Virus record (IMG/VR): IMGVR_UViG_3300045988_166693
Span: 32,001-96,000 of that record
Direction: 5' to 3' (one strand)
DNA: 64,000 bases
From: a virus
Part shown: one piece after another, positions 12,910-61,386 of the stretch
How positions within the stretch are numbered: position 1 is the stretch's first letter
How the letters are laid out: each line of letters starts with the position of its first letter
Notes under the pieces: generated by a model
What the model was told of the DNA's origin: nothing
What the model saw: the letters and a program-made list of their open reading frames with translations, nothing else
Databases searched by the model: none
Translations under genes and position numbers: made by a program

Positions 12910-12944
12910 CAAAGTTAGGCAGCCGGAAGGTGGAAATGAAGGAC
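12910..12944 (-). promoter_or_regulatory. late-operon element GTCCTTCA-N19-TAACTTTG (copy A)
   Basis: On the minus strand: TTTTTTTGTCCTTCA, then 19 nt, then TAACTTTG, ending 20 nt before the tape-measure ATG. One of seven copies with identical spacing. Confidence 0.6.
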
Positions 12945-12951
12945 AAAAAAA

Positions 12952-12995
12952 GCAACCTCTCAAGTGGTTTGCCGCAAACCTCTCGAGAGGTTTGC
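12952..12995 (-). terminator. two stem-loops; the proximal one is followed by T7 on the minus strand
   Basis: gcaaaccacttgagaggttgc followed by ttttttt (minus strand), plus the perfect 22-nt palindrome gcaaacctctcgagaggtttgc at 12974..12995. Confidence 0.55.
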
Positions 12996-13186
12996 AGGGA
13001 ATCGCGTGAGAGGTTTGCTGCATATCGCTTGACAGCCCCTACAAGGTGATCTGAAAGGGCCGGAATGTATGTTTCATTTTTATTATGTCACGTTTAATTT
13101 TAGTCAACAATATGGCTTTTTGTTACTAAAATAAGCACTATTTTGAATTAGTTTATAAATAATTTTCGGGTTGAAATGCGAAACCA

Positions 13187-13194
13187 TACTTTTG
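13187..13194 (+). promoter_or_regulatory. -7 box TACTTTTG for the lipoprotein moron
   Basis: Matches the Bacteroides TAnnTTTG consensus and ends 21 nt upstream of ATG 13216. No clear -33 TTTG. Confidence 0.4.
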
Positions 13195-13215
13195 CATGAA
13201 ACCAAAACATTATTT

Positions 13216-14106
13216 ATGAAAAAATCATTTACATTACTTTTGTTATTGAGTCTCTTCACATGGGGATGTTCCAACTCAGACGATCCCACAGAAAAACCGG
13301 AACAGGAAGAAACAGGAGACGGAGAAAAAGAGGAAAATTCTGTTGATATCAGTAAAGATTTATGCGATGGGAAAAGATTTATAGACCGGACATATAAAGA
13401 TTTCAGTTCTCCGGAACTCGGAGTCTATAAAGCTGTAATGACACAACGAGAATATCTTTTTGGAGAAGAAGGGAACGGAACATTAACAACCTATGTTGCA
13501 GACAATAAATATATAGGTTATTCGCAAGATGTTACCGATTTTACCTGGAGTGCAACAGATAAAAATCCAGTCTCTTTGAAAATTTTTCTTTCAGACGGAG
13601 AGAAAATTATACTAAACGATGTTGAAATTAAAGACAATGAGCTATATTCCTCTGAACACATTTGGGATAAAGAATTATGTGTAAAATCCGCATGGTCTTC
13701 GAGTGATATTTCATCATACTCAATTGATATGTCTACAACAGACACAACTTATCCAGAACCACCATACATGATTTGTCTTAAAGTGTCACCATCTCGCCTT
13801 ACCGTTAAGACAGAAGGCGGTGAAGTTACGTTTATTTCATTACAATCCGGATACAACCCGACACTGATTGGGATGCAGTGTTTCAGCAAGGATAATGGAC
13901 CACTACAATATTATGGAAGTTATATTTATGCCTGTGTAGATACGAAAAATCCATATTACCCATATAGTTTCTTTGATATAATTGCGGAAAAAGAACAGAA
14001 GCCATTTGAAGAAGATGGGAAAATGTATTTTTATCTAGGGAAATTTAATAAAGATACACATGAGTTCAGTTTGATAGAAAGTAATAAAGACTATAATGTA
14101 AATTGA
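13216..14106 (+). CDS. lipoprotein of unknown function (moron)
   Basis: MKKSFTLLLLLSLFTWGCSNSDD is a signal peptide plus lipobox Cys. The gene is AT-rich and on the opposite strand, inserted inside the tail module. The track start 13171 is TTG. Confidence 0.65.
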   Translation: MKKSFTLLLLLSLFTWGCSNSDDPTEKPEQEETGDGEKEENSVDISKDLCDGKRFIDRTYKDFSSPELGVYKAVMTQREYLFGEEGNGTLTTYVADNKYIGYSQDVTDFTWSATDKNPVSLKIFLSDGEKIILNDVEIKDNELYSSEHIWDKELCVKSAWSSSDISSYSIDMSTTDTTYPEPPYMICLKVSPSRLTVKTEGGEVTFISLQSGYNPTLIGMQCFSKDNGPLQYYGSYIYACVDTKNPYYPYSFFDIIAEKEQKPFEEDGKMYFYLGKFNKDTHEFSLIESNKDYNVN

Positions 14107-14111
14107 TGCAC

Positions 14112-14603
14112 ATGAAAAAATTATTTGTTATATCCGTACTTATAAGCTTATTCTCCTGTCTGAATGCACAGGTAGCTTTTTCTAAATTCACATTTAAAAA
14201 AGACTCTCCGTTCGGATGCTGCCCGGGAAGAAAAATGACAGATACCAAATTTAAGGTAACCGGCGAAAAGGATATCAAGTATATACGGGTTCATTATTAT
14301 GGAGTCAACCAGGTTGGAGATGCAGTATCCAGCGACATCGTTGGCGGTGTAAATGCAAATGTAAAGCACACCAAATATTATATACTGGATCTAACAGGAC
14401 CTTTTGTAAGCGGTAAAAGTTATTCCCGGTGGGCCAGCGGAACATTTATATATCCCATGAAAGTAACAGCCTTCCCTTATCTTATCAAGATCATATACAT
14501 GGATGGAGAAGAACAGGAAATACAAATAACAGAAGAAAATCTGAAAACTTATTTCCCGGGGATCAAAAAATGGATTAATGTAAATTTGAAAGACGGATTC
14601 TAA
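14112..14603 (+). CDS. secreted protein of unknown function (moron)
   Basis: MKKLFVISVLISLFSCLNAQ is an N-terminal signal peptide. The gene is coupled to the previous one. The track start 14103 is TTG; ATGs are at 14106 and 14112. Confidence 0.6.
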   Translation: MKKLFVISVLISLFSCLNAQVAFSKFTFKKDSPFGCCPGRKMTDTKFKVTGEKDIKYIRVHYYGVNQVGDAVSSDIVGGVNANVKHTKYYILDLTGPFVSGKSYSRWASGTFIYPMKVTAFPYLIKIIYMDGEEQEIQITEENLKTYFPGIKKWINVNLKDGF

Positions 14604-18648: not shown

Positions 18649-19227
18649 TTACCATTGCAGCAGGTTGTAGTTGAGAGTCACCGCCACGACAGCGCCCATC
18701 TTTCCGTCCGGTCCGACGCCGTAACCGACACTCAGTCCGATGCCCCACCGCTTCCTTTTCGGAGCAGGAGGCGTCACAACGCCGGTCTGAGTCTGCCGGT
18801 AGAACTCGGCCGAAACCAGCCGGGGACGGTAGCCGGAAACCACGATCCGGTAGTCGTCGGTGCGGTATTCCTTTTCGGTGATGGGGATCAGTACGTCGGC
18901 ACTGTCCGCCGCGATGGAGTCCTTCCGGACAGGGAACCGGCCTGTCTCCAGCGTATCGGGCCGGGAGACGGCAGCCGAATCTTCCGCACCGGAAGCCGGT
19001 ACGGAAGGTTTCTGCGGCCGCAATACGGGCAGTCGTGCGGTGTCGGTACCCGCCGGACGTTCGGACACGGGCGGAGCAACAGCCGTGTCGCGCAGTGTGT
19101 CCACCCTGACGGGCAGCCACACCGTGTCTGCGGTTCCCGAACCTGGGTCAGCGCATCCCCGGAAGAAAAGCGAGAAGAGGAGCGCCGCCGTCAGAACGCC
19201 TGCCAGTATCCACGGAAGCTGCTTCAT
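18649..19227 (-). CDS. lipoprotein coupled to the endolysin (spanin-like position)
   Basis: MKQLPWILAGVLTAALLFSLFFRGC is a signal peptide plus lipobox. Its start overlaps the amidase stop by 4 nt. Pro-rich linker and Gly-rich C-terminus. Confidence 0.6.
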   Translation of the reverse strand: MKQLPWILAGVLTAALLFSLFFRGCADPGSGTADTVWLPVRVDTLRDTAVAPPVSERPAGTDTARLPVLRPQKPSVPASGAEDSAAVSRPDTLETGRFPVRKDSIAADSADVLIPITEKEYRTDDYRIVVSGYRPRLVSAEFYRQTQTGVVTPPAPKRKRWGIGLSVGYGVGPDGKMGAVVAVTLNYNLLQW

Positions 19228-19796
19228 ACGCCCAGGTATTTGCAGATACCGTCCACATGGATGGCGGTAATCTTCTGTTTGCCTTCTTCAGACAGCAGGA
19301 AGTCCACGTCTTCCCGGTTGTCCTGAAACAGGTTCTCCGTGAGCACGGCCGGGCATGCGGTGTGCCTGAGGATGTAGAAACCGCTTTCCTTGTCGCTGTC
19401 GCCGTCGGAAGTGTCCTTGCGGATCTTCATACCCTTGAGCACCTGCGAAGCCTGCTCATACAGGCACTCGGCCAGGGTGTCGGCCCTGGTCTGACCTACA
19501 CTGGTCCATGCTTCCCAGCCGCGTCCGGTCATCCACTGCGAGCCGTTTCCGGCTGCATTCAGGTGGATGGAAACCAGAATGCTGTCCTTCACGCGGTTGG
19601 CGCGTGCGCAACGCTCCTGCAGGGAGATGTCTTTCTCTTCGGGGACGAGCAGCTGTGCGTCCAGACCTTTGGCCTTGAGCGCACTGACCACTCTTGCGGC
19701 TATTTCTCGGGCGTAGGCATACTCCCTCACCCGTCCGTCGGGAGACCGCTTCCCGGCGGTATCCGATCCGTGCCCGTTGTCAATCCAGATTTTCAT
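19224..19796 (-). CDS. N-acetylmuramoyl-L-alanine amidase (endolysin)
   Basis: IWIDNGHGSDTAGKRSPDG ... VSIHLNAAGNG ... VLTENLFQDNRED match Amidase_3-type metal and active-site segments. Confidence 0.85.
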   Translation of the reverse strand: MKIWIDNGHGSDTAGKRSPDGRVREYAYAREIAARVVSALKAKGLDAQLLVPEEKDISLQERCARANRVKDSILVSIHLNAAGNGSQWMTGRGWEAWTSVGQTRADTLAECLYEQASQVLKGMKIRKDTSDGDSDKESGFYILRHTACPAVLTENLFQDNREDVDFLLSEEGKQKITAIHVDGICKYLGV

Positions 19797-21118: not shown

Positions 21119-21520
21119 TTATTCCTTCTTAGGTAGTGTCTGATCTTTTTTAAAAAGTTCCCCGATGGCTTTCACCAGATTATAGAACCCGCATCCGGAC
21201 AGTCCGGCAGCCACTCCGTAGATCAGCGCACCCCACCACGCATAAACCGACAGCAGCGGAGACACCTGAAGCGCCCATGCCACCATGCAGACTACAATAC
21301 CCACGGCACACGACATACCGATCTTTGCCAGACGGTTGCCGGCCACGGCAGGGATCAGCTTCGCGATCTGCGTCACGATGGCCGAAATAAGTGCTACGAT
21401 ACCGGTAAACGTACCCAGGTCGATTGCGAAATCACCTCCGGCGGTTTCAGTTCCGGAAACTTCCTGTGCGAAGAGTGCACAGGGCATCAGCATTGCAAAG
21501 AGTAAAATCATCTTTTTCAT
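21119..21520 (-). CDS. multi-pass membrane protein, holin candidate (133 aa)
   Basis: Signal-like N-terminus followed by about three hydrophobic helices. First gene of the operon that contains the amidase. Confidence 0.4.
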   Translation of the reverse strand: MKKMILLFAMLMPCALFAQEVSGTETAGGDFAIDLGTFTGIVALISAIVTQIAKLIPAVAGNRLAKIGMSCAVGIVVCMVAWALQVSPLLSVYAWWGALIYGVAAGLSGCGFYNLVKAIGELFKKDQTLPKKE

Positions 21521-21563
21521 TTTGTCGTCTTTTTTTAGTTAAACATCTGTTTTTCTTGCAATA

Positions 21564-21598
21564 CAAAGTTAGGAATTGGGCATTTCAGAATGAAGGAC
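21564..21598 (-). promoter_or_regulatory. late-operon element GTCCTTCA-N19-TAACTTTG (copy B)
   Basis: Minus strand: TTTTTTTTGTCCTTCAttctgaaatgcccaattccTAACTTTG, ending 43 nt before ATG 21520. Confidence 0.6.
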
Positions 21599-21606
21599 AA
21601 AAAAAA

Positions 21607-21630
21607 TAGCCCGATCTCACGACCAGGCTA
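21607..21630 (-). terminator. 10-bp stem, GTGA tetraloop, T8
   Basis: Minus strand: tagcctggtcGTGAgatcgggcta followed by tttttttt. Near-identical copy at 26812..26835. Confidence 0.7.
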
Positions 21631-26768: not shown

Positions 26769-26803
26769 TAAAGATAAAGATTAACGGAACATATTTGAAG
26801 GAC
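26769..26803 (-). promoter_or_regulatory. late-operon element GTCCTTCA-N19-TATCTTTA (copy C)
   Basis: Minus strand: TTTTTTTTGTCCTTCAaatatgttccgttaatcttTATCTTTA. The -7 box has one mismatch (final A). Confidence 0.5.
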
Positions 26804-26811
26804 AAAAAAAA

Positions 26812-26835
26812 TAGCCCGGTCTCACAACCAGGCTA
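26812..26835 (-). terminator. 10-bp stem, GTGA tetraloop, T8
   Basis: Minus strand: tagcctggttGTGAgaccgggcta followed by tttttttt. It differs from the 21607 copy at two stem positions, and both changes preserve pairing. Confidence 0.7.
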
Positions 26836-35337: not shown

Positions 35338-35372
35338 CAAAGTTAGGAATAGGGTTTCTCAGAATGAAGGAC
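35338..35372 (-). promoter_or_regulatory. late-operon element GTCCTTCA-N19-TAACTTTG (copy D)
   Basis: Minus strand: TTTTTTGTCCTTCAttctgagaaaccctattccTAACTTTG, ending 17 nt before ATG 35320. Confidence 0.6.
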
Positions 35373-35389
35373 AAAAAATAAGGTGCGGA

Positions 35390-36436: not shown

Positions 36437-36471
36437 CAAAGTTAGGTATCATATCTGTTAATTTGAAGGAC
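36437..36471 (-). promoter_or_regulatory. late-operon element GTCCTTCA-N19-TAACTTTG (copy E)
   Basis: Minus strand: GTCCTTCAaattaacagatatgataccTAACTTTG. Confidence 0.55.
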
Positions 36472-36577
36472 AGAAAAAGTTCATTAAATTTATTTTTGTT
36501 TCATTTTTGTTGGTTCCATGTGTTGTTTATGAATTATTTTTGTTATTTTTGTCGTGTCAAACCACTGTAATAAAACG

Positions 36578-50599: not shown

Positions 50600-50634
50600 C
50601 AAAGATAAATAAGGCAGAACTGGGAATGAAGGAC
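50600..50634 (-). promoter_or_regulatory. late-operon element GTCCTTCA-N19-TATCTTTG (copy F)
   Basis: Minus strand: TTTTTTTGTCCTTCAttcccagttctgccttattTATCTTTG, ending 18 nt before ATG 50581. Confidence 0.6.
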
Positions 50635-50635
50635 A

Positions 50636-50759
50636 AAAAAATACGCATCTCCCTTCACAGGGAAATGCGATCATGAAACTTTTCAAAAGAAAAAATACAT
50701 CTGTTTAAGCTCACCGGCCTTCACAGGCAAATGAGCTCCGATTCAATATTTTATTATTG
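50636..50759 (-). ncRNA. candidate ~120-nt short transcript carrying two GTGA-loop hairpins
   Basis: Canonical promoter at 50766..50796, an internal hairpin at 50708..50737, and a terminator hairpin at 50644..50669 followed by TA plus T7. No credible ORF. Confidence 0.3.
50644..50669 (-). terminator. hairpin with CCCT-GTGA-AGGG tip, followed by T7
   Basis: Minus strand: cgcatttccctGTGAagggagatgcg followed by tattttttt. Confidence 0.6.
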
Positions 50760-50765: not shown

Positions 50766-50796
50766 CAAAGATACGAATAATTGTTCATCATGCAAA
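50766..50796 (-). promoter_or_regulatory. canonical Bacteroides-type promoter TTTG-N19-TATCTTTG
   Basis: Minus strand: TTTGcatgatgaacaattattcgTATCTTTG. The -33 TTTG is the end of the upstream terminator U-tract. Confidence 0.5.
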
Positions 50797-50798
50797 AA

Positions 50799-50828
50799 AC
50801 CGCACCTCCTTTCACAGGAAAGTGCGGT
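50799..50828 (-). terminator. hairpin with GTGA(A) loop plus T6, downstream of the par operon
   Basis: Minus strand: accgcactttcctGTGAaaggaggtgcggt followed by tttttt. Confidence 0.6.
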
Positions 50829-51031
50829 TATAAAAAATAAAATACGATCATTTGAATCTGTATTCAAAGTATTGCAAAGATAAGTATGTCCTTTGACATT
50901 CCAACAAAAAAAGCAGGAAGTGATGACTCTTCCTGCCTTTTGCCGTCAGAGCCACCGCTCTTAATCATTGAAATTCAATGCGAAGATACAAAAAAGTCGC
51001 AAACAGAAAATTTCTGCCTGCGACTTTTATG

Positions 51032-51571: not shown

Positions 51572-52465
51572 TTAAATCACCGGTTTCTCTTCCGGATCGG
51601 TTTCTGTTGCTTCCTCTTCATCTTCCTGAACACCGTTTGCCGATATCCATGCGTCCAGCGCTATGCTTTGCCAGTTGGACGGACGGGTGCATCCGGTTAT
51701 TTCCTCGGCCAGCGACATGTAGTCCTCTGCCCCATTCGACTCGGGCGCGTGCTCAAAAATTCCTTTGTACTGAAGCGGAGTCTCGTCAAACTTCACATTC
51801 TTGCGGATCTTTGTTTTGAAAACCTTGTCGCCATATCTGCTGTCGAAGAACTCGCTTACTGCACGCGAAATTCGGGTCTGTTTGTCATACTTGATGATCA
51901 GGAAACCCAGGATATCAAGTCTGGGATTTACATTTTCCTTGATCTCGCTGATCCCGAAAAGAAGATCCTGCATACCCTGAAGGGAGAACCCGGAACATTC
52001 TGCCGGTATCAGCACATAATCGGATGCAGACATGTTGTTGTTGTTCATCAGACCTTCTTTCGGACTGCAGTCAATCAGCACATAGTCGAACATGTATGTT
52101 CCGTCCTGCTGTGGCTGCAGGTAAGGTTTCAGTTTCTTGTTATAAAGGAACATTTCCCGGTTTACTTTTCCGTTCAGATATGACTCTATATCGCGGAGCC
52201 CTTTGGAAGAAGGTACATAGAACAGGCCGGGATACTGCTCGTAAATCGGCATGGGCATATCGTCCGTGCGCAACCATTCATTGAGCGTGGCGTCACCTTC
52301 ACTCTGATTAAATCCAAGCATTCCGCTGAGATTACACTGCGCATCCGTATCAATCAGCAGCACACGTTTTCCAAGCGCCCAAAGCGCTACACCCAGATTG
52401 TAAGTAGTGGTAGTCTTTGCTACTCCACCCTTGAAATTAAGAATAGAAATTACTTTTGTCATCAT
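51572..52465 (-). CDS. parA: ParA/Soj-family partition ATPase
   Basis: Deviant Walker A in ILNFKGGVAKTTTTYNLG, followed by LLIDTDAQCNLS. Confidence 0.85.
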   Translation of the reverse strand: MMTKVISILNFKGGVAKTTTTYNLGVALWALGKRVLLIDTDAQCNLSGMLGFNQSEGDATLNEWLRTDDMPMPIYEQYPGLFYVPSSKGLRDIESYLNGKVNREMFLYNKKLKPYLQPQQDGTYMFDYVLIDCSPKEGLMNNNNMSASDYVLIPAECSGFSLQGMQDLLFGISEIKENVNPRLDILGFLIIKYDKQTRISRAVSEFFDSRYGDKVFKTKIRKNVKFDETPLQYKGIFEHAPESNGAEDYMSLAEEITGCTRPSNWQSIALDAWISANGVQEDEEEATETDPEEKPVI

Positions 52466-52499
52466 TAATAGGATTTGAATTTCAACACCACAAAAGTAA

Positions 52500-53135
52500 T
52501 GATAATCTTTGAAATATCAAAGCTATATAGATAAATAAATATATAGCTATACAAATATTCAGTTATTCCGATAACCATATATTCAGCTATACAGATAGTC
52601 AGCTATACAACTATACAAATAGCAAAATATATACATAACCGGCTATGCAACAATATAGTTATACAGATATAAGCCTTCCAAAAACCAACGGGATATATGG
52701 CTATACAGATAGGCAGTTATCCGACTATCTGTATATATAAATATTTAGCTATACAGTTATATGGCTATACATATATTTAATTATATAGCTATTTATATAT
52801 CTACCTATCAGGTTATCCTTATTCCTGCATATCCAGCTATTCAGATATACATATAGCTGGATATATAGATAGTTGTATATGCAGATATACATGTAGCTGA
52901 ATATATGACTAGCTAAATATATAAATAGCTGAATATATGAATATATAAATAGCCGGATATCGGACTAGCCGTATATCTGTATATATACCTGTCTGTATAA
53001 CCGGACATGCGAAATAAATAACCGGATATGTGTAAAGCCATATATCCGGTTATATACAAAGCTATATATCCATATATTTAAATAGCCATATAGCTGGTTA
53101 TGTAAATATATGGATATATGTATTTATGGTTTAGG
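52500..53135. repeat. ~640-bp AT-rich array of short degenerate repeats (candidate centromere and/or origin region)
   Basis: At least ten copies of RGCTATACA(R) in the left half. TAGCTGAATATAT and CCGGATAT/ATATCCGG families, in both orientations, fill the right half. No ORF of 60 aa or more. Lies directly upstream of parA. Confidence 0.6.
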
Positions 53136-53139
53136 TATT

Positions 53140-54015
53140 TCACATCTCGATTTCCTTAACCGGCATCCAGTCGTCAGGATCAGCAAAACTTATCCCGGTG
53201 TTGCCGCTAAACAGCCGGCATGAAGCGTTGGTACACCGGTTGCGGAGTAGGGGAACGGATGGCGCTTCGGCCGAATAAAGCACGTCACCGTCCGCAGACA
53301 GGGCCTCGATGCGGATCGGCGACTGGAACTCTTCGTCCGGGGTAGGGGTGAAGCTGTACATCGAGAAGGAAAGTCCGGTCCGGCCTGTATATTCACTTCC
53401 GGTCTTCCAGGAAAGGGAGTAGGCTGATCCGGAAGATCCGGCTGCGTTTCCCGTCTGAAGGTCCAGCTTCCGGTAGTGGTCGTCGACCGTAAGACGGATG
53501 GAGTCAACGCCTTGCGGCATTGCGTCGCGCAGAGTCACTTTCACCATGGTGACGACCCGCTCCATAGGAACCGTCTGCTGGTCCTGCAGGTTTTCGTCCG
53601 CTTCCAGCGGAAAATCCGTCCAGAAAGTTTCCGTCACCTTTGACGGATAAAAAGTCCGGTCTTCCGACTGCTGAAGGCTGGTGCTGCTGTGGGCGAGGAA
53701 ATAAAGATGGTGCGATCCGTATTTGAGCGTCATGCTGATGGGAGAGGGGAGTGTCAGTGTGTCCGACTGCAGGCAGTCGCCGCCCAGATAGTCCCAGTAG
53801 GAGAGGGTAGTGGCCAGATCGGACAGCGACTCGGCGCGCGACGGCTGCCAGGAAGCAATGTCTCCCTGTGAAATTTCCATGAACGAAGGCACAAAAGATA
53901 CCCTGCACGTCTGATCACTCATTTCGGGATCGTCCGGTTCGCCAACAATGTTTTCCTGACTGCATGCTGCCAGAAGTAGTGCGGCCGCCATGCAAATGCT
54001 TTTTGATAAATCCAT
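53140..54015 (-). CDS. lipoprotein of unknown function (291 aa)
   Basis: MDLSKSICMAAALLLAACSQEN is a signal peptide plus lipobox, from ATG 54015. The longer track ORF (ATG 54153) would translate the inverted iterons. Confidence 0.6.
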   Translation of the reverse strand: MDLSKSICMAAALLLAACSQENIVGEPDDPEMSDQTCRVSFVPSFMEISQGDIASWQPSRAESLSDLATTLSYWDYLGGDCLQSDTLTLPSPISMTLKYGSHHLYFLAHSSTSLQQSEDRTFYPSKVTETFWTDFPLEADENLQDQQTVPMERVVTMVKVTLRDAMPQGVDSIRLTVDDHYRKLDLQTGNAAGSSGSAYSLSWKTGSEYTGRTGLSFSMYSFTPTPDEEFQSPIRIEALSADGDVLYSAEAPSVPLLRNRCTNASCRLFSGNTGISFADPDDWMPVKEIEM

Positions 54016-54094
54016 ACTGCTAAGTTTAAAAGTTCTGTCAATAGAACGCGGAAAGTGAATTTTGTCTCCCTTTTCAGGAAATATTTTTAGAGGA

Positions 54095-54200
54095 GTTCGG
54101 AATCTTTGCACCTTCGTATAGTTCGGAATCTTTGCACCTTTTGACGAAAACATTGAACGATATGACGGAAACTTTACCCGTTAACACGGAATCTTTGCAC
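54095..54200. repeat. inverted-orientation iteron copies
   Basis: GTTCGGAATCTTTGCACCTT occurs twice (54095, 54121). GACGGAAACTTTACCC (54164) is the reverse complement of the direct iteron core. CACGGAATCTTTGCAC is at 54185. Confidence 0.65.
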
Positions 54201-54406
54201 AAAGTTGTTTATAAAATGCTTATATTCAATCGGTTGCTCATTCTATATAATCATCTATATAATATACTGTAAAGAAACGATAGTTTCTTAAATAAAGGGC
54301 AAAAAGAAGAAATACGTCGGTCTGCTTTTATAAAGAATATAATGATATAAGATATATAGGCAAGAGTAATGTTTTATAAAACAGATACTTACATTAATAA
54401 AGGTGA

Positions 54407-54534
54407 AAAGTTTCCGTCAGATTGGGTAAAGTTTCCGTCAATCGGGGAAAACTTTCCGTGTATTGGGGTAAAGTTTCCGTCAATCGGGGGAAACTTTCCG
54501 AACATAAAAGAGAAAAGGTGCAAAGTTTCCGAAC
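54407..54534 (+). repeat. five tandem 21-bp iterons plus one outlier upstream of rep
   Basis: AAAGTTTCCGTCA or AAACTTTCCGnnn start at 54407, 54428, 54449, 54470 and 54491 (exact 21-bp period), and again at 54522. An AT-rich stretch (54200..54400) lies between the inverted and direct sets. Confidence 0.75.
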
Positions 54535-54630
54535 TATTTTGCTTTGTGATTTTCCTATAATGGAAAATATTAGCGTTTTATTTTCCGTTTTTGGAAAATA
54601 TATCTATATTTGTGCCAAATAACCAGACCT

Positions 54631-54885
54631 ATGAAGATTTACTTAGAAGAAAGATTAAAAGAGTCAGGTATAAGCAAGGATGAACTGGCAAAGAGACTGG
54701 GGATTTCCAATTCAAGTCTGACAAAGAAATTAAACGGTCCGTCACGGACTAACCTGCAATTCCTTGAAAGCGTGGCCGATGCGTTGGGGATATCTGTCTT
54801 TTCGCTGATTGAGGATGAAAAATGCGTGAAGGTAGGTACATTCCAGGCTGACGGAAACACTTACGAAATACGGAAAATAAACTGA
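54631..54885 (+). CDS. XRE-family HTH regulator (84 aa)
   Basis: ISKDELAKRLGISNSSLTKKLNG...LQFLESVADALGISVFSLI. The track start 54610 is TTG; ATG is at 54631. Confidence 0.7.
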   Translation: MKIYLEERLKESGISKDELAKRLGISNSSLTKKLNGPSRTNLQFLESVADALGISVFSLIEDEKCVKVGTFQADGNTYEIRKIN

Positions 54886-54891
54886 TAGCCT

Positions 54892-56355
54892 ATGCGACGA
54901 AAGAAAAGTACACCTGAGTCGAGCAATTCACTGATAAAGGAACTCAGCTCTGTTGAGTTTATCAAACAGCCATACCTGTATGCGATGGTGGGTGCCGATT
55001 TCTCGCTTTACCAGCGAAGCATTATGATTGAAATCGTGAAGTCGATGCAGGATCGGATCAATGAATTTCTGAAGAACAAGCGGGCCGACGGGCAAATGTC
55101 TCTTTTCCCAAAAGATCTGAGCGACGACCAGATTGTTACGTTCAGAATCAGCGCTTCCTCCATTGGAGTCAGTCCACGTGATTATGTTTATCTGGACGAA
55201 GCCTGTAAAAATCTGATGGAAATGAATATTTCCTATTACGATTATGACCAGATGGGGAGAAAAATGCGTACATACGCTCACTTGTTTTCAACGATTAAAA
55301 TGCCCGTGACTCCGGTTTCCGGATCGAAAGAGAAGGAAAAACGGATGAACTATGTGGAAGCCCGTATGGATGCAAAAATCCTGAAATACCTTTGCGACCT
55401 CGGGAATGGGAAAGGATATCTGGATCATATCTATCGGATTGCACGTATCTGCAAGCGTAAACGTACACCGAGTATCTACATCTATCTTTCCCGCTGGAAA
55501 GACTTTCCGAAGAAAACGGTGGAATATGTCGAACTGAAGAAGTTTCTGGGTGTGATCACCCTGGAAGAAGAAAAGGTGAACGGGAAAATGGTCAAGACAG
55601 AAAAAGACAAATATCCGAAGTTCAGTAAATTCTGCAAGGAAGTGATGGACCCGATACGGGAGGATCTTGACCGGATGGCCAGCGAAAATCTGGTAGACTT
55701 TACCTTTGATTATGAACCTGTGTACAAAGGTGCAACCAAACGGGGTAACCCGGATGAAATACTTTTCAACATCAAGCTGAGCGAGCTGGGGGAGGAGATG
55801 TCGCGGAAACGAAGGCAGCAAAAGCTACCTGCCGACATCTGGGATCTGCTGCGGTCGGAATACAAGCTGACGGAAACCGATGTGCGTATGCTCACCGACA
55901 TGCTTCCTGATGAACTTATGAATGAGTTCCGGTCCGAAGTGTTGGCCCTGCGTGACCGAATGAACCGGTATAAGGTAAACAATCCGAAAAGCTATGTGGT
56001 AACATCACTCAAGAATTTTATTATCCAGCATACACCGGAAGCGAAAGAAGCCAAAGAGGATGAAAGGGTAGGGGAGAAGAAGGAGACACCTCATACCAAA
56101 CCCATCAGCGAAGAAGACAAGAACAGATGGCAGGCATTTATGGAACTGCTTCAGGGAAGCGTTTCGGTCAATGAGTTTAAGACATGGTTGTCGTCGCTTG
56201 AATTTGTGTCTCTCAAAGGGGATGAAGTCACGGTTTCTGTCCCGGCGGCTTATGTAGCCACCTATATTGACGAAAAGCTGAATATCCCGTTTATACAGGC
56301 TCTCAATGCCGTGTATGGTGAAAACGTGAAACTTCTTTATGAAGTAAGAAAATGA
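54892..56355 (+). CDS. plasmid-type replication initiator with DnaA-N-like C-terminal domain
   Basis: Lies directly downstream of the iterons. The C-terminus NRWQAFMELLQGSVSVNEFKTWLSSLEFVSLKGDEVTVSVPAAYVATYIDEKLNIPFIQALNAVYG resembles the DnaA N-terminal domain pattern. The Rep call rests on context plus this domain. Confidence 0.55.
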   Translation: MRRKKSTPESSNSLIKELSSVEFIKQPYLYAMVGADFSLYQRSIMIEIVKSMQDRINEFLKNKRADGQMSLFPKDLSDDQIVTFRISASSIGVSPRDYVYLDEACKNLMEMNISYYDYDQMGRKMRTYAHLFSTIKMPVTPVSGSKEKEKRMNYVEARMDAKILKYLCDLGNGKGYLDHIYRIARICKRKRTPSIYIYLSRWKDFPKKTVEYVELKKFLGVITLEEEKVNGKMVKTEKDKYPKFSKFCKEVMDPIREDLDRMASENLVDFTFDYEPVYKGATKRGNPDEILFNIKLSELGEEMSRKRRQQKLPADIWDLLRSEYKLTETDVRMLTDMLPDELMNEFRSEVLALRDRMNRYKVNNPKSYVVTSLKNFIIQHTPEAKEAKEDERVGEKKETPHTKPISEEDKNRWQAFMELLQGSVSVNEFKTWLSSLEFVSLKGDEVTVSVPAAYVATYIDEKLNIPFIQALNAVYGENVKLLYEVRK

Positions 56356-56396: not shown

Positions 56397-56900
56397 TCAT
56401 TCCACATAGTCCTGCGGATCTATACAGAGATTTACCTGCTGTACATCGGTCAGTTCGACGAAGACCGCATACCAGTTGTTCAGGAAAGGTCCGTAGGTTG
56501 AATAGTGAAGCTCCTCCGTTTCAAGGTTTATGTTCCGGAAAATCTTTCGTTTCTCCTGCTGATCGCGAAGCCAGGCCAGGAACTTATGCATGTGCATCTT
56601 TGCTTCCTGAATAGCTTCGTATGACTGCTGCTTGTCCGTCGGCTTCATATTATTCGTTTTAACGAGGAAATAAACCACGTGTACAGGTTTATCCAGACCG
56701 CCTCTGATCGTCCCGTCCTGGGCAAATTCGTAGCCCACACAAGGCGATTTCACATCGGGCAGCTTGCTCATGAACGAGGGAATAGCTACAATGTTGTCGA
56801 AAAGGAAAAACCGTTTGTTCTTTCCGGTTTCTCCGGGCGTATGAAGCATGGGCTTGTACTTCGTGGCCCATTCTTCGATGATTTCTTTTAATTCTGTCAT
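56397..56900 (-). CDS. hypothetical virion/assembly protein (167 aa)
   Basis: ATG ORF with GC content like the structural genes. Confidence 0.45.
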   Translation of the reverse strand: MTELKEIIEEWATKYKPMLHTPGETGKNKRFFLFDNIVAIPSFMSKLPDVKSPCVGYEFAQDGTIRGGLDKPVHVVYFLVKTNNMKPTDKQQSYEAIQEAKMHMHKFLAWLRDQQEKRKIFRNINLETEELHYSTYGPFLNNWYAVFVELTDVQQVNLCIDPQDYVE

Positions 56901-57000: not shown

Positions 57001-57537
57001 TCATTTCATCCGGAATTTATAATCACTTCGTTTAAACTCGTCCTGGAAAGAAACCAGTACGCCGTTTTCGATGAAGTCCTGATAATAGGACGACACGAGC
57101 ACTTCCAGTCGCCGGAGCTGGTGACGCACCTCCATGGCGATGACGGGTCGTGACTGGCGGTCGCCTTCTTCCTTCCATATCTGATAAAGCTGGTTGAAAC
57201 GGGCATCCTTGCTGCGTTCCACATCTTCGATGGGCTGTCCGGCACCGACACCCATATCCACGAAATACAGGTAATAGTTGAAGAAGAAGGAAATCTTTTT
57301 TGTGTCACCTCCGGCCCCGTTGAACACCTTGGCATACATGCGCCGGTAAGCCTGCCCGGTACTCCGTTTGGCTGCCGGTGTATTGCGGTACCCGATGTAC
57401 GGACCGGGGAATCCCCCCGGCCATACATGCTGTGTCTCGAAGTTGGTCTGAAGCTGCCGGATCATATTATTTGCCCAGCGTGTCAGGTCAAGAAACTCCT
57501 CTTTTACCGCCTGACTGATGGTTTTCTGTTCTGACAT
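57001..57537 (-). CDS. hypothetical virion/assembly protein (178 aa)
   Basis: ATG ORF. The overlapping ORF 57006..57428 is rejected as a shadow. Confidence 0.45.
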   Translation of the reverse strand: MSEQKTISQAVKEEFLDLTRWANNMIRQLQTNFETQHVWPGGFPGPYIGYRNTPAAKRSTGQAYRRMYAKVFNGAGGDTKKISFFFNYYLYFVDMGVGAGQPIEDVERSKDARFNQLYQIWKEEGDRQSRPVIAMEVRHQLRRLEVLVSSYYQDFIENGVLVSFQDEFKRSDYKFRMK

Positions 57538-58190: not shown

Positions 58191-58829
58191 CTACAATGAA
58201 TAAGCTATCTTAGACATATTATCGTTTACTCTTTTATCAATTTCTTCATAAACTGAAAGATACATGTATTTCTTCCCATTATACTTATTCATTCTTCTGA
58301 TGGAAGAATATAGCCCGTCAACATTTAAGTTCATTTTTCTTGCACATTCGGCCGCAGATAAAAAGACCTCTTTCGTTTCCAGGCAAATTACTTTTTTACC
58401 TAAAGGCTTTGAGGACTTTATATGAGGGCCAAAGTTGCTGTCAGGATCATTGATAAGACGTAAACATTTCTCCCTTGATAATTTCCTTTGTTTTTCCTGT
58501 CTTTCTTTAGACCAGTTATTAAAGCCTTTGCTCGCCTTATTCCCTTTGGCAAAACGTCCTGTATTTATGTCAATGTTAGGATTTCTTGTAAATTTCAGAT
58601 CATCCAGCCGCTGTTCTTCATATATTTTTCTGAAATCCTTTTCATAGTAAAACCTGAGACCTCTACATATAGCGCCACGTAAGCAGCTGTCAGTTATGGA
58701 ATTTCTATCTACTTTACTGATGCTGGCGGCCAGTTTTATAGATCCAAAAAATCCGGCAACGGTTCCATTTGGATTTACCGCAACTACCGGGCGATTGCTT
58801 CCGACTTTATATTGAGTATTTGTAAGCAT
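58191..58829 (-). CDS. homing-endonuclease-type DNA-binding protein lacking a nuclease domain
   Basis: Two IENR1/NUMOD1-like modules: VVAVNPNGTVAGFFGSIKLAASISKVDRNSI...GLRFYY and KKVICLETKEVFLSAAECARKMNL...SSIRR. No GIY-YIG or HNH motif seen. Confidence 0.5.
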   Translation of the reverse strand: MLTNTQYKVGSNRPVVAVNPNGTVAGFFGSIKLAASISKVDRNSITDSCLRGAICRGLRFYYEKDFRKIYEEQRLDDLKFTRNPNIDINTGRFAKGNKASKGFNNWSKERQEKQRKLSREKCLRLINDPDSNFGPHIKSSKPLGKKVICLETKEVFLSAAECARKMNLNVDGLYSSIRRMNKYNGKKYMYLSVYEEIDKRVNDNMSKIAYSL

Positions 58830-58925
58830 CCGATTTCCTCATCTTTATTAAACATTTTATCCATAATATCTTTGTCCTTCACAAAAGTATAGGAAATAAT
58901 TAAATATTGGAAGGATAAAAAATTT

Positions 58926-59387
58926 ATGGCATTATCACACTCAGAAGCTCAGGTTCTTTATGCACGATATTTGAAGAGTGGAATGACACTTGAAAAGTTT
59001 TGCAAACTTCACCAAGTTCCTTATTGGGATTTTTCTGACTGGATTAACCAATGGGAAAAATTATATGGAGCAAAGTACGTTGAGAATTCTACGACAATCC
59101 AGTATAAGCAAGAAAGGAAACTTTTTTCAAGTGAAAATCCGTCTTTTTCTTCAAATGCTCAAAAAATATTTCCAATAGAATTTGTAGAAAACAACTCACC
59201 TCTACATTTCCCTAATGAACATCCTAGTTTCAATGTTGACCTGGAACTCCCTAAACCTGGAACTATTATAAAAGGTGCCAAACTTACTTTCCCAAGTGGT
59301 ATGACTGTTAATATACCGCGCATTACAATCAAAGGATTAGTATTAATAGCGATTATGTATGAAGGAAACTGTACTGGGATTGAATAA
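58926..59387 (+). CDS. IS66-family accessory protein (orf1)
   Basis: First ORF of the IS66-type trio, with an N-terminal HTH-like segment. Confidence 0.55.
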   Translation: MALSHSEAQVLYARYLKSGMTLEKFCKLHQVPYWDFSDWINQWEKLYGAKYVENSTTIQYKQERKLFSSENPSFSSNAQKIFPIEFVENNSPLHFPNEHPSFNVDLELPKPGTIIKGAKLTFPSGMTVNIPRITIKGLVLIAIMYEGNCTGIE

Positions 59388-59679
59388 AGATATGAAATTC
59401 TATTTCTGTCCAGAATATGTAAACATGCAGAAGGGCATAGACAGTCTTTGTGGATTTATACGAAGTAATCTAATGCGTGATCCGTTTTCTAATGAGGTAT
59501 TTATATTTATGGGAAGAAATAAGAAGCAGATAAAGATATTAAGATGGGATGAAGATAAGTTTATACTTTATACAGTTAAGCTATATAATAAAAAAAGATT
59601 TACCCCTTATTATAATCCTAGAAAAAACAATTATTATTTAGAATGGAAACAAATTTGTAGCCTTTTATTTTCCATATAA
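59359..59679 (+). CDS. IS66 Orf2-like protein (TnpB of IS66)
   Basis: MKFYFCPEYVNMQKGIDSLCGFIRSNL...VFIFMGRNKKQIKILRWDEDKF resembles the IS66 Orf2 pattern (DMRKGIDGL ... IFxNRxRxxxKxLxWD). The start is either 59359 or 59392. Confidence 0.65.
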   Translation: MKETVLGLNKDMKFYFCPEYVNMQKGIDSLCGFIRSNLMRDPFSNEVFIFMGRNKKQIKILRWDEDKFILYTVKLYNKKRFTPYYNPRKNNYYLEWKQICSLLFSI

Positions 59680-59789
59680 GGCAATTTTTTGATTAAAAAT
59701 TTCCTTATATGGAAATTTTTGGGTGTTTTAGTATGTATGTCAAATTTGTCTCATTTTGTGCATTAATATATAAAGTCTATTTTTAGTGC

Positions 59790-61346
59790 ATGAAAAGAAA
59801 CCATTTAAACGATTTCCTTGTAGAACAAATAAAAAATAAAGACTCTCAAATTGAAGGTCTCAATCAACTTATTTCCAGCCTTATCGAAAAAATCGAATCA
59901 CTGGAAAAGAATATCTGTTCGTATGAAAATCTTGTGAAAGAACTTCGTGATACTATAAATCTACTCAATAAGAGATTATATGGGTCAAAAAGCGAAAAAT
60001 CTCACTCAGAGAACTCAGAAAGGAAGTATAATGGTGAAAAACTAAGTTCCAAGGGAACTTATCCTAAAGAAAAGATTGAAGAAAAACCGGATAAAAAGTC
60101 GAATCCTCGTAAAGCGTATAAACGTCCAGAAAGACGTACATACGACGATATAGAAGAGAAAATAGAAATACTTGAACCGGATGCTGAAGAATTGATAGGA
60201 GCAAAATTTGTTCGCTCTGAAAAATCATTCCGCTTATATATGATTCCGGCGAAAATTGTAAAAGTAATCTATGACAGAAGGATTTATGCAAAAGACGGAC
60301 ATTTAATTATGCCTAAACTTCCTTATACTCCAGAAGAATTTTACAGAAGGCACGCAGATCCGTCATTGATGGCTGGTATCCTTACTAATAAATTTCTATA
60401 TCATTTACCTATACATCGCCAGTTAAATATGTTTGTAAATGCCGGAGCTAAAATCGCGCGTTCAACTTTATATGACTGGTGTGGTACAGCTATTGATGCT
60501 CTTGAAGGACTTTATTATTCCATCATGTCAGAGGTGCTAAAAGGTAACTATTTGAATATAGACGAAACGACAATCTCTGTAATTGATGAAGATGTCCATC
60601 ATGCAAAGAAAGAATATATGTGGGGGCTTGTTAACACCAGAAGTAAATTGACTTTCTTTGCTTATGAAGATGGCTCTAGAAGCAGGAATGTAATCAGTAA
60701 CATATTAGAAAGCTATATAGGTACAATTCAAACAGATGGATATTCGGCGTATAAGTCTATAGGAGAAAACGAAAATAATAAAATTCAAAGGTTATCTTGT
60801 CTTAGTCATATAAGAAGAAAGTTTTTGGAAAGTAGAGATAACGACAGAGAAAATTCAGAAAAGGCACTTGGAATTATAGATAAAATATATAGGCTTGAAA
60901 GATTTTTCAGAAAACAAAAATTTCATCCTGATAAAATAAGAGAGTATAGAATTAGGTATGTAGTGCCGATATTTCATAAATTCAAGAATTGGCTTGAAAA
61001 AAGTATATCCAATCCTAAGATTCTCGATGAAACTTTAATCGGGAAGGCCATATCGTATGCCTATCGTGAATTTAAGGCTCTTACGTTAATTTTTGATGAT
61101 GGATTCTTTAAAGCTGATAACAATGCAGCAGAAAGAGCTATGCGACCATGCAAACTCGGAATGAATAATTATCTTTTCTTCGGAAATCACGAGAGCGCAA
61201 GGAGAGGAGCTATTATTTACACTATCATTGAAAGTTGTAAATTAAATGGCATAAATGTGTTCGAATATCTTACAGATGTTTTTAGCAGAGAACCCCAACC
61301 AGGAGAAACGTACGATATGTTTCTCCCGAACAGGTGGAATCAATAA
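59790..61346 (+). CDS. IS66-family DDE transposase
   Basis: 518 aa with an N-terminal coiled coil. NIDETTISV, QTDGYSAYK and NNAAERAMRP fit the IS66 transposase conserved blocks. Confidence 0.75.
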   Translation: MKRNHLNDFLVEQIKNKDSQIEGLNQLISSLIEKIESLEKNICSYENLVKELRDTINLLNKRLYGSKSEKSHSENSERKYNGEKLSSKGTYPKEKIEEKPDKKSNPRKAYKRPERRTYDDIEEKIEILEPDAEELIGAKFVRSEKSFRLYMIPAKIVKVIYDRRIYAKDGHLIMPKLPYTPEEFYRRHADPSLMAGILTNKFLYHLPIHRQLNMFVNAGAKIARSTLYDWCGTAIDALEGLYYSIMSEVLKGNYLNIDETTISVIDEDVHHAKKEYMWGLVNTRSKLTFFAYEDGSRSRNVISNILESYIGTIQTDGYSAYKSIGENENNKIQRLSCLSHIRRKFLESRDNDRENSEKALGIIDKIYRLERFFRKQKFHPDKIREYRIRYVVPIFHKFKNWLEKSISNPKILDETLIGKAISYAYREFKALTLIFDDGFFKADNNAAERAMRPCKLGMNNYLFFGNHESARRGAIIYTIIESCKLNGINVFEYLTDVFSREPQPGETYDMFLPNRWNQ

Positions 61347-61351
61347 TTTTT

Positions 61352-61386
61352 GTCCTTCAATGATTTCTATATTCTTTTTACCTTTG
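61352..61386 (+). promoter_or_regulatory. GTCCTTCA-N19-TACCTTTG element on the plus strand (copy G)
   Basis: Same 8-mer, same 19-nt spacer and a consensus -7 box. It points into the 3' end of the minus-strand gene 61447..61974. Confidence 0.45.

Follow-up and report, generated by a model that had tools for sequence, protein, structure and literature searches.

Recurrence and placement of the element

The locus raises the question of whether a rigidly spaced element recurring upstream of virion and lysis genes marks a promoter class that the phage has for itself. The window analyzed here (64,000 nucleotides; positions 32,001 to 96,000 of IMG/VR record IMGVR_UViG_3300045988_166693) derives from a large gut Bacteroidales phage of ~100-115 kb with partition and replication genes of plasmid type. 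The first-pass annotation had placed seven copies of an 8-mer, GTCCTTCA, at a fixed distance from a Bacteroides-type -7 box. An exact search of the window for GTCCTTCA-N19-TAnnTTTR recovered the same seven (six on the minus strand and one on the plus strand), and none of 100 dinucleotide shuffles contained a match (0 expected versus 7 seen). GTCCTTCA alone occurs 14 times in the window versus 2.25 expected, and a search with two mismatches allowed found no further credible copy there. The order of parts is a T-run, GTCCTTCA, exactly 19 bases, and a host-type -7 box. The T-run, also remarked on earlier, precedes the 8-mer at every copy, and a short A-rich leader follows the -7 element.

12910..12951 (core 12910-12944), minus strand: copy 1, T7-GTCCTTCA-N19-TAACTTTG, heading the tape-measure gene 7145-12889 (ATG at 12889)
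21564..21606 (core 21564-21598), minus strand: copy 2, T8-GTCCTTCA-N19-TAACTTTG, heading a lysis/virion operon
26769..26811 (core 26769-26803), minus strand: copy 3, T8-GTCCTTCA-N19-TATCTTTA, heading an operon with a diversity-generating retroelement (DGR)
35338..35378 (core 35338-35372), minus strand: copy 4, T6-GTCCTTCA-N19-TAACTTTG, no hairpin, heading 34319-35320 and other genes
36437..36478 (core 36437-36471), minus strand: copy 5, TTTTTCT-GTCCTTCA-N19-TAACTTTG, no hairpin, heading the single gene 35390-36418
50600..50641 (core 50600-50634), minus strand: copy 6, T7-GTCCTTCA-N19-TATCTTTG, heading genes for 87 aa (50318-50581) and 577 aa (48583-50316)
61352..61386, plus strand: copy 7 (atypical), GTCCTTCA-N19-TACCTTTG, ending 23 nt before a 34-aa ORF (61411-61514)

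The six minus-strand copies are intergenic, point in the same direction as the genes, and end 14 to 43 nt short of an operon's first ATG. The gap between -7 box and ATG is 20, 17, 14, 17, 18, 18, and 23 nt for copies 1 to 7, respectively; at copy 2, the 17 nt lead to a 3-codon mini-ORF, and the holin gene starts at 43 nt. The tape-measure gene behind copy 1, identified by PHROGs matches, is followed by two more tail genes (5021-7138 and 3886-5007). The copy 2 operon contains a holin-like gene (21119-21520; phrog_1299), an amidase gene (19224-19796; Amidase_3), and more genes to 14819. The DGR behind copy 3 comprises a target gene (24546-25964) with the variable repeat (VR, 24550-24681), an Avd-like gene (24115-24468), and a reverse transcriptase gene (22639-24111; RVT_1) containing the template repeat (TR, 23906-24037); TR and VR match at 86% over 132 nt. 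Copy 4 heads 34319-35320, a fibre-like gene of 1537 aa (29709-34322), and three further genes, and the copy 5 gene encodes a 342-aa DUF6712 protein. The copy 6 gene pair is conserved and syntenic beside ParA in relatives of 120 to 139 kb, where the element is kept at 52 to 57% identity of the 577-aa protein. The gene classes found behind copies include tail, lysis, fibre/DGR, HU-like, and head-module genes, a classification that comes from annotation and not from timing.

Comparison with the canonical Bacteroidota promoter

The canonical promoter of the Bacteroidota primary sigma factor consists of a -33 TTTG and a -7 TAnnTTTG. The -7 element is the same here. As first listed, the boxes are TAACTTTG (four copies), TATCTTTG, TACCTTTG, and TATCTTTA; six of the seven match TAnnTTTG exactly, and one ends in A. 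The -33/-7 pair has served as a promoter criterion (PMC13139388). Its upstream half is replaced at the copies, none of which has a TTTG 19 to 21 nt from the -7 box, the place that GTCCTTCA occupies. The closest TTTG, 26 nt away from the -7 box, is made up of T-run bases and the G of GTCCTTCA, and copy 5 lacks one; this bears out the original remark that no TTTG stands at the canonical distance. Canonical promoters are present in the same window, one at 50766-50796 (TTTG-N19-TATCTTTG) and a second, the parA promoter, at about 52498.

The spacer is exactly 19 nt, as had been claimed, but calling it unrelated sequence went too far. The first two bases after GTCCTTCA are TT or AA, 18 of the 21 nonredundant sites have a T 4 nt ahead of the -7 box, and the spacers of the copies at 21564 and 35338 are identical at 15 of 19 positions. 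The 8-mer is not a palindrome, with the T-run on one flank and variable sequence on the other.

Hairpins abutting the copies

A strong terminator-like hairpin (z about -3 to -5) abuts four of the six minus-strand copies, the exceptions being copies 4 and 5.

12952..12995, minus strand: terminator-like hairpin before copy 1, abutting the T-run (-26.2 kcal/mol, z -5.0)
21607..21630, minus strand: terminator-like hairpin TAGCCTGGTCGTGAGATCGGGCTA before copy 2, within a 40-nt repeat common to copy 3
26812..26835, minus strand: terminator-like hairpin abutting copy 3
50640..50672, minus strand: terminator-like hairpin before copy 6 (-21.2 kcal/mol, z -5.0)
50766..50796, minus strand: canonical host-type promoter, hairpin-T6-G-N19-TATCTTTG, of the same cassette design as copy 6

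Since copies 4 and 5 have the T-run without a hairpin, the T-run is probably more than a terminator tail. The 40-nt repeat (hairpin, T-run, and box) common to the copies at 21564 and 26769 is 95% identical. The hairpins of copy 6 and of the canonical promoter at 50766-50796 are paralogues, and the two designs differ in that copy 6 has an extra 7 nt (TCCTTCA) separating its TTTG from the 19-nt spacer. Canonical promoters with terminators lie directly upstream of copies 3 and 6, so part of late expression could come from read-through; most copies have no such upstream promoter.

An IS66-family element at copy 7

Although all seven copies had been described as heading late operons, this holds for the six minus-strand copies. 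The seventh is atypical: it lies in an accessory region, is flanked by an insertion sequence, and precedes only one ORF, which encodes a conserved, hydrophobic 34-aa product. It begins 6 nt past the stop codon of the transposase gene of the element listed below.

58882..61351, plus strand: IS66-family element, with genes for a TnpA-like protein (58926-59387), TnpB (59359-59679; TnpB_IS66), and a DDE transposase (59790-61346)

The site of insertion is the copy 7 8-mer. The element falls within the 2.4 to 2.7 kb of such elements, carries the TnpA, TnpB, and DDE genes, and is bounded by 8-bp direct repeats of GTCCTTCA (left, 58874-58881; right, 61352-61359, which is the copy 7 8-mer) that represent the IS66 target duplication. 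Relatives free of the element (L049-L053) have the empty site, with a single weaker sequence, GTCATTCA-N19-TATCTTTA, before the conserved 34-aa ORF, and another relative (L184) has an internally deleted IS66 copy with the same ends. Phocaeicola coprophilus DSM 18228 carries the element at 98% identity.

Conservation in phages and scarcity in cellular genomes

A set of 47 loci retrieved through protein similarity and totaling 914 kb yielded 135 copies. Every one of them is on the gene strand and is followed, 17 to 44 nt later, by an ORF that starts with ATG and encodes at least 50 aa. Where the T-run and 8-mer occur in protein-anchored loci, a -7 box lies exactly 19 nt further on in 50 of 52 distinct contexts. 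The copy 4 site is kept in all 47 (47/47). In 46 loci centered on the early/tail-end region (931 kb), the element was found 0 times; judged by annotation, it keeps to a single temporal or functional class of phage genes. A broad range of Bacteroidales phages of 100 to 140 kb retain the signal, even at tape-measure protein identities of only 27 to 45%. Spacers and flanks diverge between relatives, while the T-run, 8-mer, N19, and -7 box are kept; at the site orthologous to copy 1 (kept in L130-L198, L142, L178, L339, and L342), both spacers and hairpins differ. Such invariance of GTCCTTCA across very divergent phages exceeds the conservation of most phage regulators and counts against the phage-factor reading given below. 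The site orthologous to copy 5 is GTCCTTTT in one relative (L041) and a canonical TTTG-N19-TATTTTTG in another (L039); because one swaps for the other at L039, the GTCCTTCA site and the canonical sequence appear to be interchangeable promoters.

The T4-extended pattern was also searched for in 185,579 bacterial and archaeal genomes, one per species. Only 64 matches were obtained, the majority inside genes and in unrelated phyla. The promoter-like matches were in Bacteroidales contigs, where the downstream ORFs, when read, resemble fibre or holin genes. Per Bacteroidales locus, the scan gave at most one copy. Outside phage-like contigs, the signal is essentially absent from the scanned genomes.

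A probable late promoter class and its putative reader

The box sits at a fixed distance from a host-type downstream element that is kept, in place of the -35-region element. The GTCCTTCA-N19-TAnnTTT[G/A] sites are probably late promoters of a phage-specific class. This reading is partly supported, by comparative evidence. Of the original proposal of a distinct promoter class that may depend on a phage factor, the first part agrees with the placement, the conservation, the absence from hosts and early regions, and the replacement of the canonical element; the candidate factor then put forward, an HTH protein, does not hold up as well.

1448..2068, minus strand: LuxR/GerE-type HTH protein of 206 aa, encoded by the second gene of the primase operon

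If this protein were the reader, its C-terminal HTH would recognize GTCCTTCA and stand in for sigma region 4. The C-terminal 60 residues form a LuxR/GerE-type HTH with sub-threshold matches to Sigma70_r4, the protein is found in every long contig of the phage family, and its conserved Cys-rich central part could contact polymerase. Since the primase operon has no copy of the motif, the gene is plausibly expressed ahead of the late genes. However, in two relatives (L339 and L342) the recognition helix of the homologue is NSRRTVEWTGRQVF or NSKRTAEQLGRQAF and not CSYSNIDNIRKRIF, and despite this very different helix their tape-measure promoters keep an exact T5-GTCCTTCA-N19-TAACTTT[G/A]; the covariation test thus disfavors the protein, which was the only region-4-like one found. 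LuxR-type proteins usually bind dyads, as dimers, yet GTCCTTCA has no dyad symmetry. The novel Cys-rich N-terminal part yielded neither a sigma region 2 nor a structural match. We consider this reader unlikely. As a sigma factor in its own right, the protein was rejected, being a LuxR/GerE-type HTH fused to a Cys-rich part.

It is doubtful, too, that a divergent phage-encoded alternative sigma factor reads both halves, with GTCCTTCA as the -35-like and TAnnTTTG as the -10-like element. The rigid spacing, the asymmetry of the box, and its location exactly at the usual -33 position would suit such a factor, as would a -7 box that prefers TAAC (16 of 21 nonredundant sites) and is thereby narrower than the host consensus; most phage ORFs, moreover, have no family match. 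Against it, the -7 half matches the host type perfectly, where a separate sigma factor would be expected to use a downstream element distinct from the host's, and no Sigma70_r2-type match was found among the window proteins scanned or in the Pfam lists for ~30 kb of flanks.

We give very little weight to the idea that hairpin, T-run, and box are mainly a terminator or insulator cassette spread by duplication or recombination, with an ordinary promoter downstream and no role for the 8-mer in initiation. The strong hairpins at four copies, the shared 40-nt repeat, the paralogous hairpins before copy 6 and its canonical neighbor, and the differing gene content between copies among relatives fit a cassette. 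But two copies and many orthologues keep T-run, box, and N19 without a hairpin, and orthologous tape-measure promoters keep the box behind completely different hairpins. A terminator tail would not be expected to hold its distance to the -7 box to the base pair, and the conserved core of 8 + 8 bp is too short for homologous recombination. It is highly improbable that the reader is a host factor (a Bacteroidales activator or minor sigma factor) and that the phage exploits the signal of a host regulon. In favor of a host factor, the box is invariant among otherwise very divergent phages, as if its reader evolved slowly, and the element is also carried by several Bacteroidales contigs of phage-like character whose proteins resemble those of the window weakly or not at all. 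A host regulon, however, would give many matches per genome and not 64 in 185,579 species, with at most one promoter-like copy per Bacteroidales locus and that beside fibre- or holin-like genes where read.

Relation to known phage systems

The middle promoters of phage T4 pair a MotA box near -30 with the host -10, and MotA acts there with AsiA in "sigma appropriation." The sites described here are similar in that the host downstream element is kept, a nonpalindromic phage box at a fixed distance replaces the -35-region element, A/T-rich sequence precedes the box, and one temporal class of genes is served. They differ in host phylum and geometry and in serving virion and lysis (late) genes; no sigma-, MotA-, or AsiA-like protein was detected among the proteins scanned, most ORFs having no family match. 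In P1 (Lpa), Mu (C protein), and P2/P4 (Ogr/Delta), late operons are preceded by a host -10 and a conserved activator site but lack a usable -35, and one early or middle activator turns on all of them. The activators there bind dyad sites, as dimers or as zinc-finger proteins, and some of the sites lie further upstream. The present phage shares with that group a temperate or plasmid-like character and several late operons, each with its own putative promoter; its box, in contrast, is an asymmetric 8-mer exactly at the -33 position, and no homologue of the Lpa, C protein, or Ogr/Delta activators was detected. As at lambda PR'/Q, short canonical promoter and terminator units stand just upstream of late genes (copies 3 and 6), but here the box follows the terminator instead of lying in the upstream promoter, and each copy has its own -7 element.

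A model for late gene expression

In a phage-specific promoter class of this kind, host RNA polymerase with the primary sigma factor would recognize the -7 element (mostly TAACTTTG). A transcription start 5 to 10 nt after the -7 box would place the T-run at about -45 to -40 and GTCCTTCA at about -39 to -32. The T-run and G lie 7 bp too far upstream to serve as a -33 TTTG, and because the TTTG sits beyond its working distance, the promoter may be silent on its own; we infer that it needs a non-host factor. A conserved phage-encoded protein, either a class-II-type activator or a substitute for sigma region 4, would read GTCCTTCA and recruit or remodel the polymerase. Upstream of four copies, hairpin and T-run would end the preceding transcription unit, so that each operon would rely on its own box. 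By this means the tail, lysis, fibre/DGR, and other virion operons of the phage would be switched on together.

Seven copies of a rigidly spaced element

The first-pass annotation had described seven copies of a T-run, the 8-mer box GTCCTTCA, a 19-nt spacer, and a host-type -7 box, located as follows.

12910-12944, minus strand, copy 1
21564-21598, minus strand, copy 2
26769-26803, minus strand, copy 3
35338-35372, minus strand, copy 4
36437-36471, minus strand, copy 5
50600-50634, minus strand, copy 6
61352-61386, plus strand, copy 7

An exact search of the window for GTCCTTCA-N19-TAnnTTT[G/A] recovered all seven, and the same pattern was matched in none of 100 dinucleotide-preserving shuffles. 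The bare 8-mer occurred 14 times in the window versus 2.25 expected. With two mismatches permitted, the window yielded no further credible site. The copies have in common a T-run immediately 5' of the box, seen in context as first annotated, the -7 boxes listed at that time, and an A-rich leader. In five of the six minus-strand copies, the -7 box lies 14 to 20 nt 5' of the ATG; the exception is copy 2, where a 3-codon mini-ORF precedes a holin-like gene that starts 43 nt 3' of the -7 box. The mini-ORF (ATG TTT AAC TAA, 21544-21555), between copy 2 and the holin-like gene, is kept in relatives ('atgtttaactaa').

TTTG spacing was judged by tabulating the window's 73 TAnnTTTG boxes. As had been proposed, no copy (0/7) has the canonical -33 TTTG at 19 to 21 nt from its -7 box. 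The sole TTTG near the copies is made up of the T-run and the G of the box, 26 nt from the -7 box; copy 5 instead has TTTTTCTG. A -7-like box 19 to 21 nt past the T-run and G was sought at the copies and was not found, and the displaced TTTG was rejected as a functional -33 element. At late-type copies, the -7 box favors TAAC (16 of 21 non-redundant sites) and a T stands four nt 5' of it (18 of 21), a preference narrower than the generic TAnnTTTG. Canonical TTTG-N19/22-TAnnTTTG promoters are present elsewhere in the window, with minus-strand examples at 27027, 50773, 50882, and 52498.

Copy 7 borders an IS66-family insertion

Copy 7 starts 6 nt past the stop codon of an IS66-family transposase gene, and a second GTCCTTCA lies at 58874-58881, 2,478 nt 5' of that of copy 7. 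The 2.47-kb insert is absent in related loci L049 to L053, which carry a single site, ATCTTTGTCATTCA-N19-TATCTTTA, and behind it the 34-aa hydrophobic ORF also seen in the window; locus L184 holds an internally deleted IS copy with the same two ends. On the basis of the second 8-mer, the empty sites, and the L184 ends, the IS was delimited to 58882-61351, with GTCCTTCA duplicated as the 8-bp target site. IS66 elements generate 8-bp target duplications, and membership of the insert in this family was borne out by the duplication and by the empty site in relatives. The IS lies exactly in the GTCCTTCA of a motif-like site whose native, pre-insertion form had only TTT 5' of the box, the present T5 run being derived from the IS end. 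The description of seven copies heading late operons thus stands for the six minus-strand copies, while copy 7 is an IS-flanked outlier in an accessory region. The 34-aa ORF (MKKGNMIDIKEF..., 61411-61514), conserved 3' of copy 7, converges on an opposite-strand 175-aa gene (61447-61974) with a 68-nt overlap with its 3' end; it could encode a small membrane peptide or reflect an antisense arrangement.

Gene content of the window

The window covers part of a large phage and is laid out as six minus-strand operons, each beginning at a copy, with plus-strand accessory blocks (13216-14603 and 36578-48304) in between. The features identified were as follows.

7145-12889, tape measure, 1,914 aa
17146-17988, NUMOD3-motif protein, likely a homing endonuclease, within the lysis/virion operon
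19224-19796, amidase
21119-21520, holin-like protein
22639-24111, reverse transcriptase of a diversity-generating retroelement (DGR)
23906-24037 and 24550-24681, DGR template repeat (TR) and variable repeat (VR), 132 nt, 86% identical
29709-34322, fiber-like protein, 1,537 aa
42038-42646 and 42630-43862, IS607-like pair (serine recombinase and TnpB/OrfB-like protein) in the plus-strand block 36578-48304
51572-52465, ParA
54631-54885, small HTH gene
54892-56355, Rep3/DnaA_N initiator
62234-63658, C5 methylase

The DGR is complete, with an Avd-like gene (24115-24468) and the VR at the 3' end of its target gene (24546-25964). TnpB-like genes related to the IS607-like pair are present at other positions in loci L336 to L338. 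Relatives in IMG/VR are contigs of 90 to 122 kb, and a 115-kb ENA contig shares the methylase and the IS66 element of the window, with neighboring genes matching in size and order. Positions 58822-61888 (3.07 kb) are 98% identical to Phocaeicola coprophilus DSM 18228 Scfld10; this match and the -7 boxes jointly indicate a host among the Bacteroidales, and the shared IS suggests Phocaeicola. No near match was found in INPHARED to window positions 20000-44000 or in PLSDB to the IS region (58700-61600).

Plasmid-type maintenance genes (ParA, the Rep3/DnaA_N initiator, and the small HTH gene, 51572-56355) lie inside the phage, and no integrase was seen among the proteins scanned. These genes, and the recurrence of the order ParA, 87-aa gene, and ~600-aa gene in L336 to L338, suggest a phage-plasmid lifestyle. 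The 577-aa protein behind copy 6, first annotated as a portal, had no Pfam or PHROG match, and a homologue search gave 538 relatives, unannotated; most proteins of the phage group have no family match. No RNA families or tRNAs were found in the window.

Hairpins and canonical promoters near the copies

A rival explanation is that the element is a terminator or insulator cassette instead of a promoter box. Hairpins adjoin four copies (-17.5 to -26.2 kcal/mol, z of -3.2 to -5.0); none adjoins copy 4 or 5, and the T-run therefore appears to be conserved as an element of its own. Upstream of copy 6, a cassette made of hairpin, T-run, and G occurs three times in tandem. Two of the cassettes give canonical promoters (TTTG-N22 and TTTG-N19-TATCTTTG), and in the third, an inserted TCCTTCA separates the G from the 19-nt spacer, so that the late form looks like a canonical promoter with its -33 TTTG shifted 7 bp out of register.

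On the minus strand just 5' of copies 3 and 6 (26870-27050 and 50640-50908), terminator-like hairpins stand ~70 to 130 nt or less behind canonical TTTG-N19/22-TAnnTTTG promoters. These units had no Rfam match; they could give short RNAs or leaders. Their presence led us to weigh lambda-Q-like antitermination, which was rejected as the main mechanism, the order of elements being wrong and four copies having no such unit. Reading of the box at the RNA level (leader pairing or anti-Shine-Dalgarno likeness) was also rejected, as the leaders have no common complementary segment.

Conservation of the element in related phages

Loci fetched via the DUF6712 protein, the gene behind copy 5 (35390-36418), carried copies in 47 of 47 cases, always on the gene strand. 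These loci (914 kb) hold 135 copies, each 17 to 44 nt 5' of an ORF that begins with ATG and is 50 aa or longer. Among distinct sites, the spacer and flanks vary and the T-run, box, N19, and -7 box are constant. Across the protein-anchored loci, 50 of the 52 distinct contexts with a T-run plus 8-mer had a -7 box exactly 19 nt farther on; 26 of 33 8-mers without a T-run had no -7 box behind them. No copy was found in 46 loci centered on the LuxR-type gene (931 kb, tail-end and early genes), and the 10 kb past the right end of the window held only the IS-associated one (one mismatch and spacers of 17 to 21 allowed).

Orthologues of the tape-measure promoter have three unrelated upstream hairpins, differing spacers, and an identical core, which is kept where the tape measure is only 45% (L142) or 27 to 37% (L339 and L342) identical. 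At the site orthologous to copy 5, the element is replaced in L039 by a canonical TTTG-N19-TATTTTTG, and the sequence in L041 is GTCCTTTT-N19-TATTTTTG. Contigs of 120 to 139 kb, found via the 577-aa protein (48583-50316; 52 to 57% identity), retain the ParA/87-aa/~600-aa gene order. The site 5' of the 87-aa gene (50318-50581) is the exact motif in L338, the exact 8-mer with TAACTTTA in L337, and GTCCTTCC in L336; L337 has more copies, 5' of an HU-like gene and of homologues of 57001-57537 and 56397-56900. Outside the window span, a close relative has TTTTTA-GTCCTTCA-N19-TAGCTTTA 5' of an HU-HIG gene, followed by an S49-type protease and more genes, a group that we read as a head module.

Distribution in host genomes and IMG/VR

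Genomes of 185,579 species, one per species, were scanned for TTTTGTCCTTCA-N19-TAnnTTTG. Only 64 stretches matched, the majority being lone hits within genes of unrelated phyla. About nine had the full appearance (hairpin or T-run, A-rich leader, and ATG), eight of them in Bacteroidales contigs; the exception, L120, was binned as a Ruminococcus MAG. Of the eight whose ORFs were read, three precede fiber-like proteins (L098, L106, and L120), two precede holin-like membrane proteins (L067 and L069), and three precede nothing recognizable (L061, L064, and L087). The remaining one of the nine belongs to the IS region as found in P. coprophilus. No Bacteroidales locus in the scan had more than one copy; therefore, the element is not a host promoter class. 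These counts speak against a second rival, in which a host factor reads the box. When GTDB genomes were scanned with the DUF6712 protein as the anchor, no relative of it turned up.

The IMG/VR scan gave more than 117 stretches; among the matches listed, most are on the same contigs as the protein-anchored loci, and 10 of 18 other stretches checked have family proteins.

The LuxR-type protein as a candidate reader

The LuxR-type protein (1448-2068, minus strand), which the first-pass annotation had named as the possible reader of the box, has GerE/HTH_23 matches and sub-threshold Sigma70_r4 matches. Its gene is second in the primase operon, divergent from a gene for a 436-aa HTH_3 protein, a location that fits an early regulator. 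In an AlphaFold model (mean pLDDT, 81), only the C-terminal ~60 residues matched structures in PDB and BFVD, as a LuxR/NarL/GerE-type HTH; no solved or viral structure was matched by the N-terminal ~140 residues, in which Cys and Asn-Gly motifs are invariant. With nothing beyond these HTH matches, the protein was ruled out as a sigma factor.

Covariation was tested by a metagenome scan with an alignment of a divergent subgroup of LuxR-type homologues (P0050 to P0052), which led to L339 and L342. Their homologues are 46 to 48% identical overall, with a recognition helix of NSRRTVEWTGRQVF or NSKRTAEQLGRQAF versus CSYSNIDNIRKRIF in the window, and these contigs have exact T5-GTCCTTCA-N19-TAACTTT[G/A] as their tape-measure promoters. 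Changes of this kind would not be expected in a reader that touches an invariant 8-mer with that helix; the proposed link is therefore weakened, and the LuxR-type protein is an unlikely reader of the box, although its conserved Cys-rich part may have a role. A further rival is a cryptic phage sigma factor. No other candidate reader, sigma-like ones included, was seen among the proteins scanned or in precomputed Pfam lists of the flanks.

The divergent control region (2452-2589), which separates the LuxR/primase operon from the HTH_3 gene (2590-3900), contains an inverted repeat, GTAAC-N6-GTTAC, a possible operator, and has no perfect TAnnTTTG on the operon strand. Its counterpart in the divergent LuxR lineage, where the HTH_3 gene again runs away from the LuxR-type operon, carries a second recurring signal, TTCTTTCA-N19-TAAWTTTA (L339, 2369; L341, 322; L342, 7707; L344, 983; all minus strand), with two positions unlike those of the late box.

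Discussion

The elements are likely a phage-specific, phage-dependent class of late promoter, as judged from the conserved box and N19 spacing, the lack of a -33 TTTG, and the absence from host genomes; the original proposal is thus supported in part, the distinct class being likely and the link to the LuxR-type protein weakened. Host primary-sigma polymerase would use the -7 box with its -33 contact unavailable, and a conserved phage factor would read the T-run and GTCCTTCA, supplying the missing contact or remodeling sigma region 4. We tentatively put forward, as a possibility with the odds against it, that this factor is a small, highly conserved phage protein that, on the primary-sigma polymerase of Bacteroidota, replaces or repositions sigma region 4. 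The 7-bp displacement of TTTG would then be a built-in "off" state that the factor overrides.

T4 middle promoters work by a MotA box with AsiA, and P1, Mu, and P2 late promoters are activator dependent; both were likened to the present elements. We do not assign the elements to any of these systems: a search for a homologous factor found none, the box lacks dyad symmetry, and the geometry follows the Bacteroidota pattern. Literature searches that covered Bacteroides late promoters, phage-plasmids in Bacteroides, and crAss001 transcription starts turned up no account of the motif.

If the elements are late promoters, the motif is a sequence-only marker of late operons in large, mostly unannotated gut Bacteroidales phages. 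The 8-mer, with its base-pair-exact spacing, offers a clean bait for a new factor acting on the unusual Bacteroidota polymerase, and the element would offer a design for a tightly off, phage-inducible promoter in Bacteroides genetics. The box is invariant while phage proteins drift to 27 to 50% identity, and how its reader is kept constant is a puzzle. If the small-protein reading is true, a switch resembling sigma appropriation would operate in a phylum whose promoter architecture is unlike the E. coli model, and it would be common to a broad, largely uncultured group of 100- to 140-kb gut Bacteroidales phages with plasmid-type maintenance genes.
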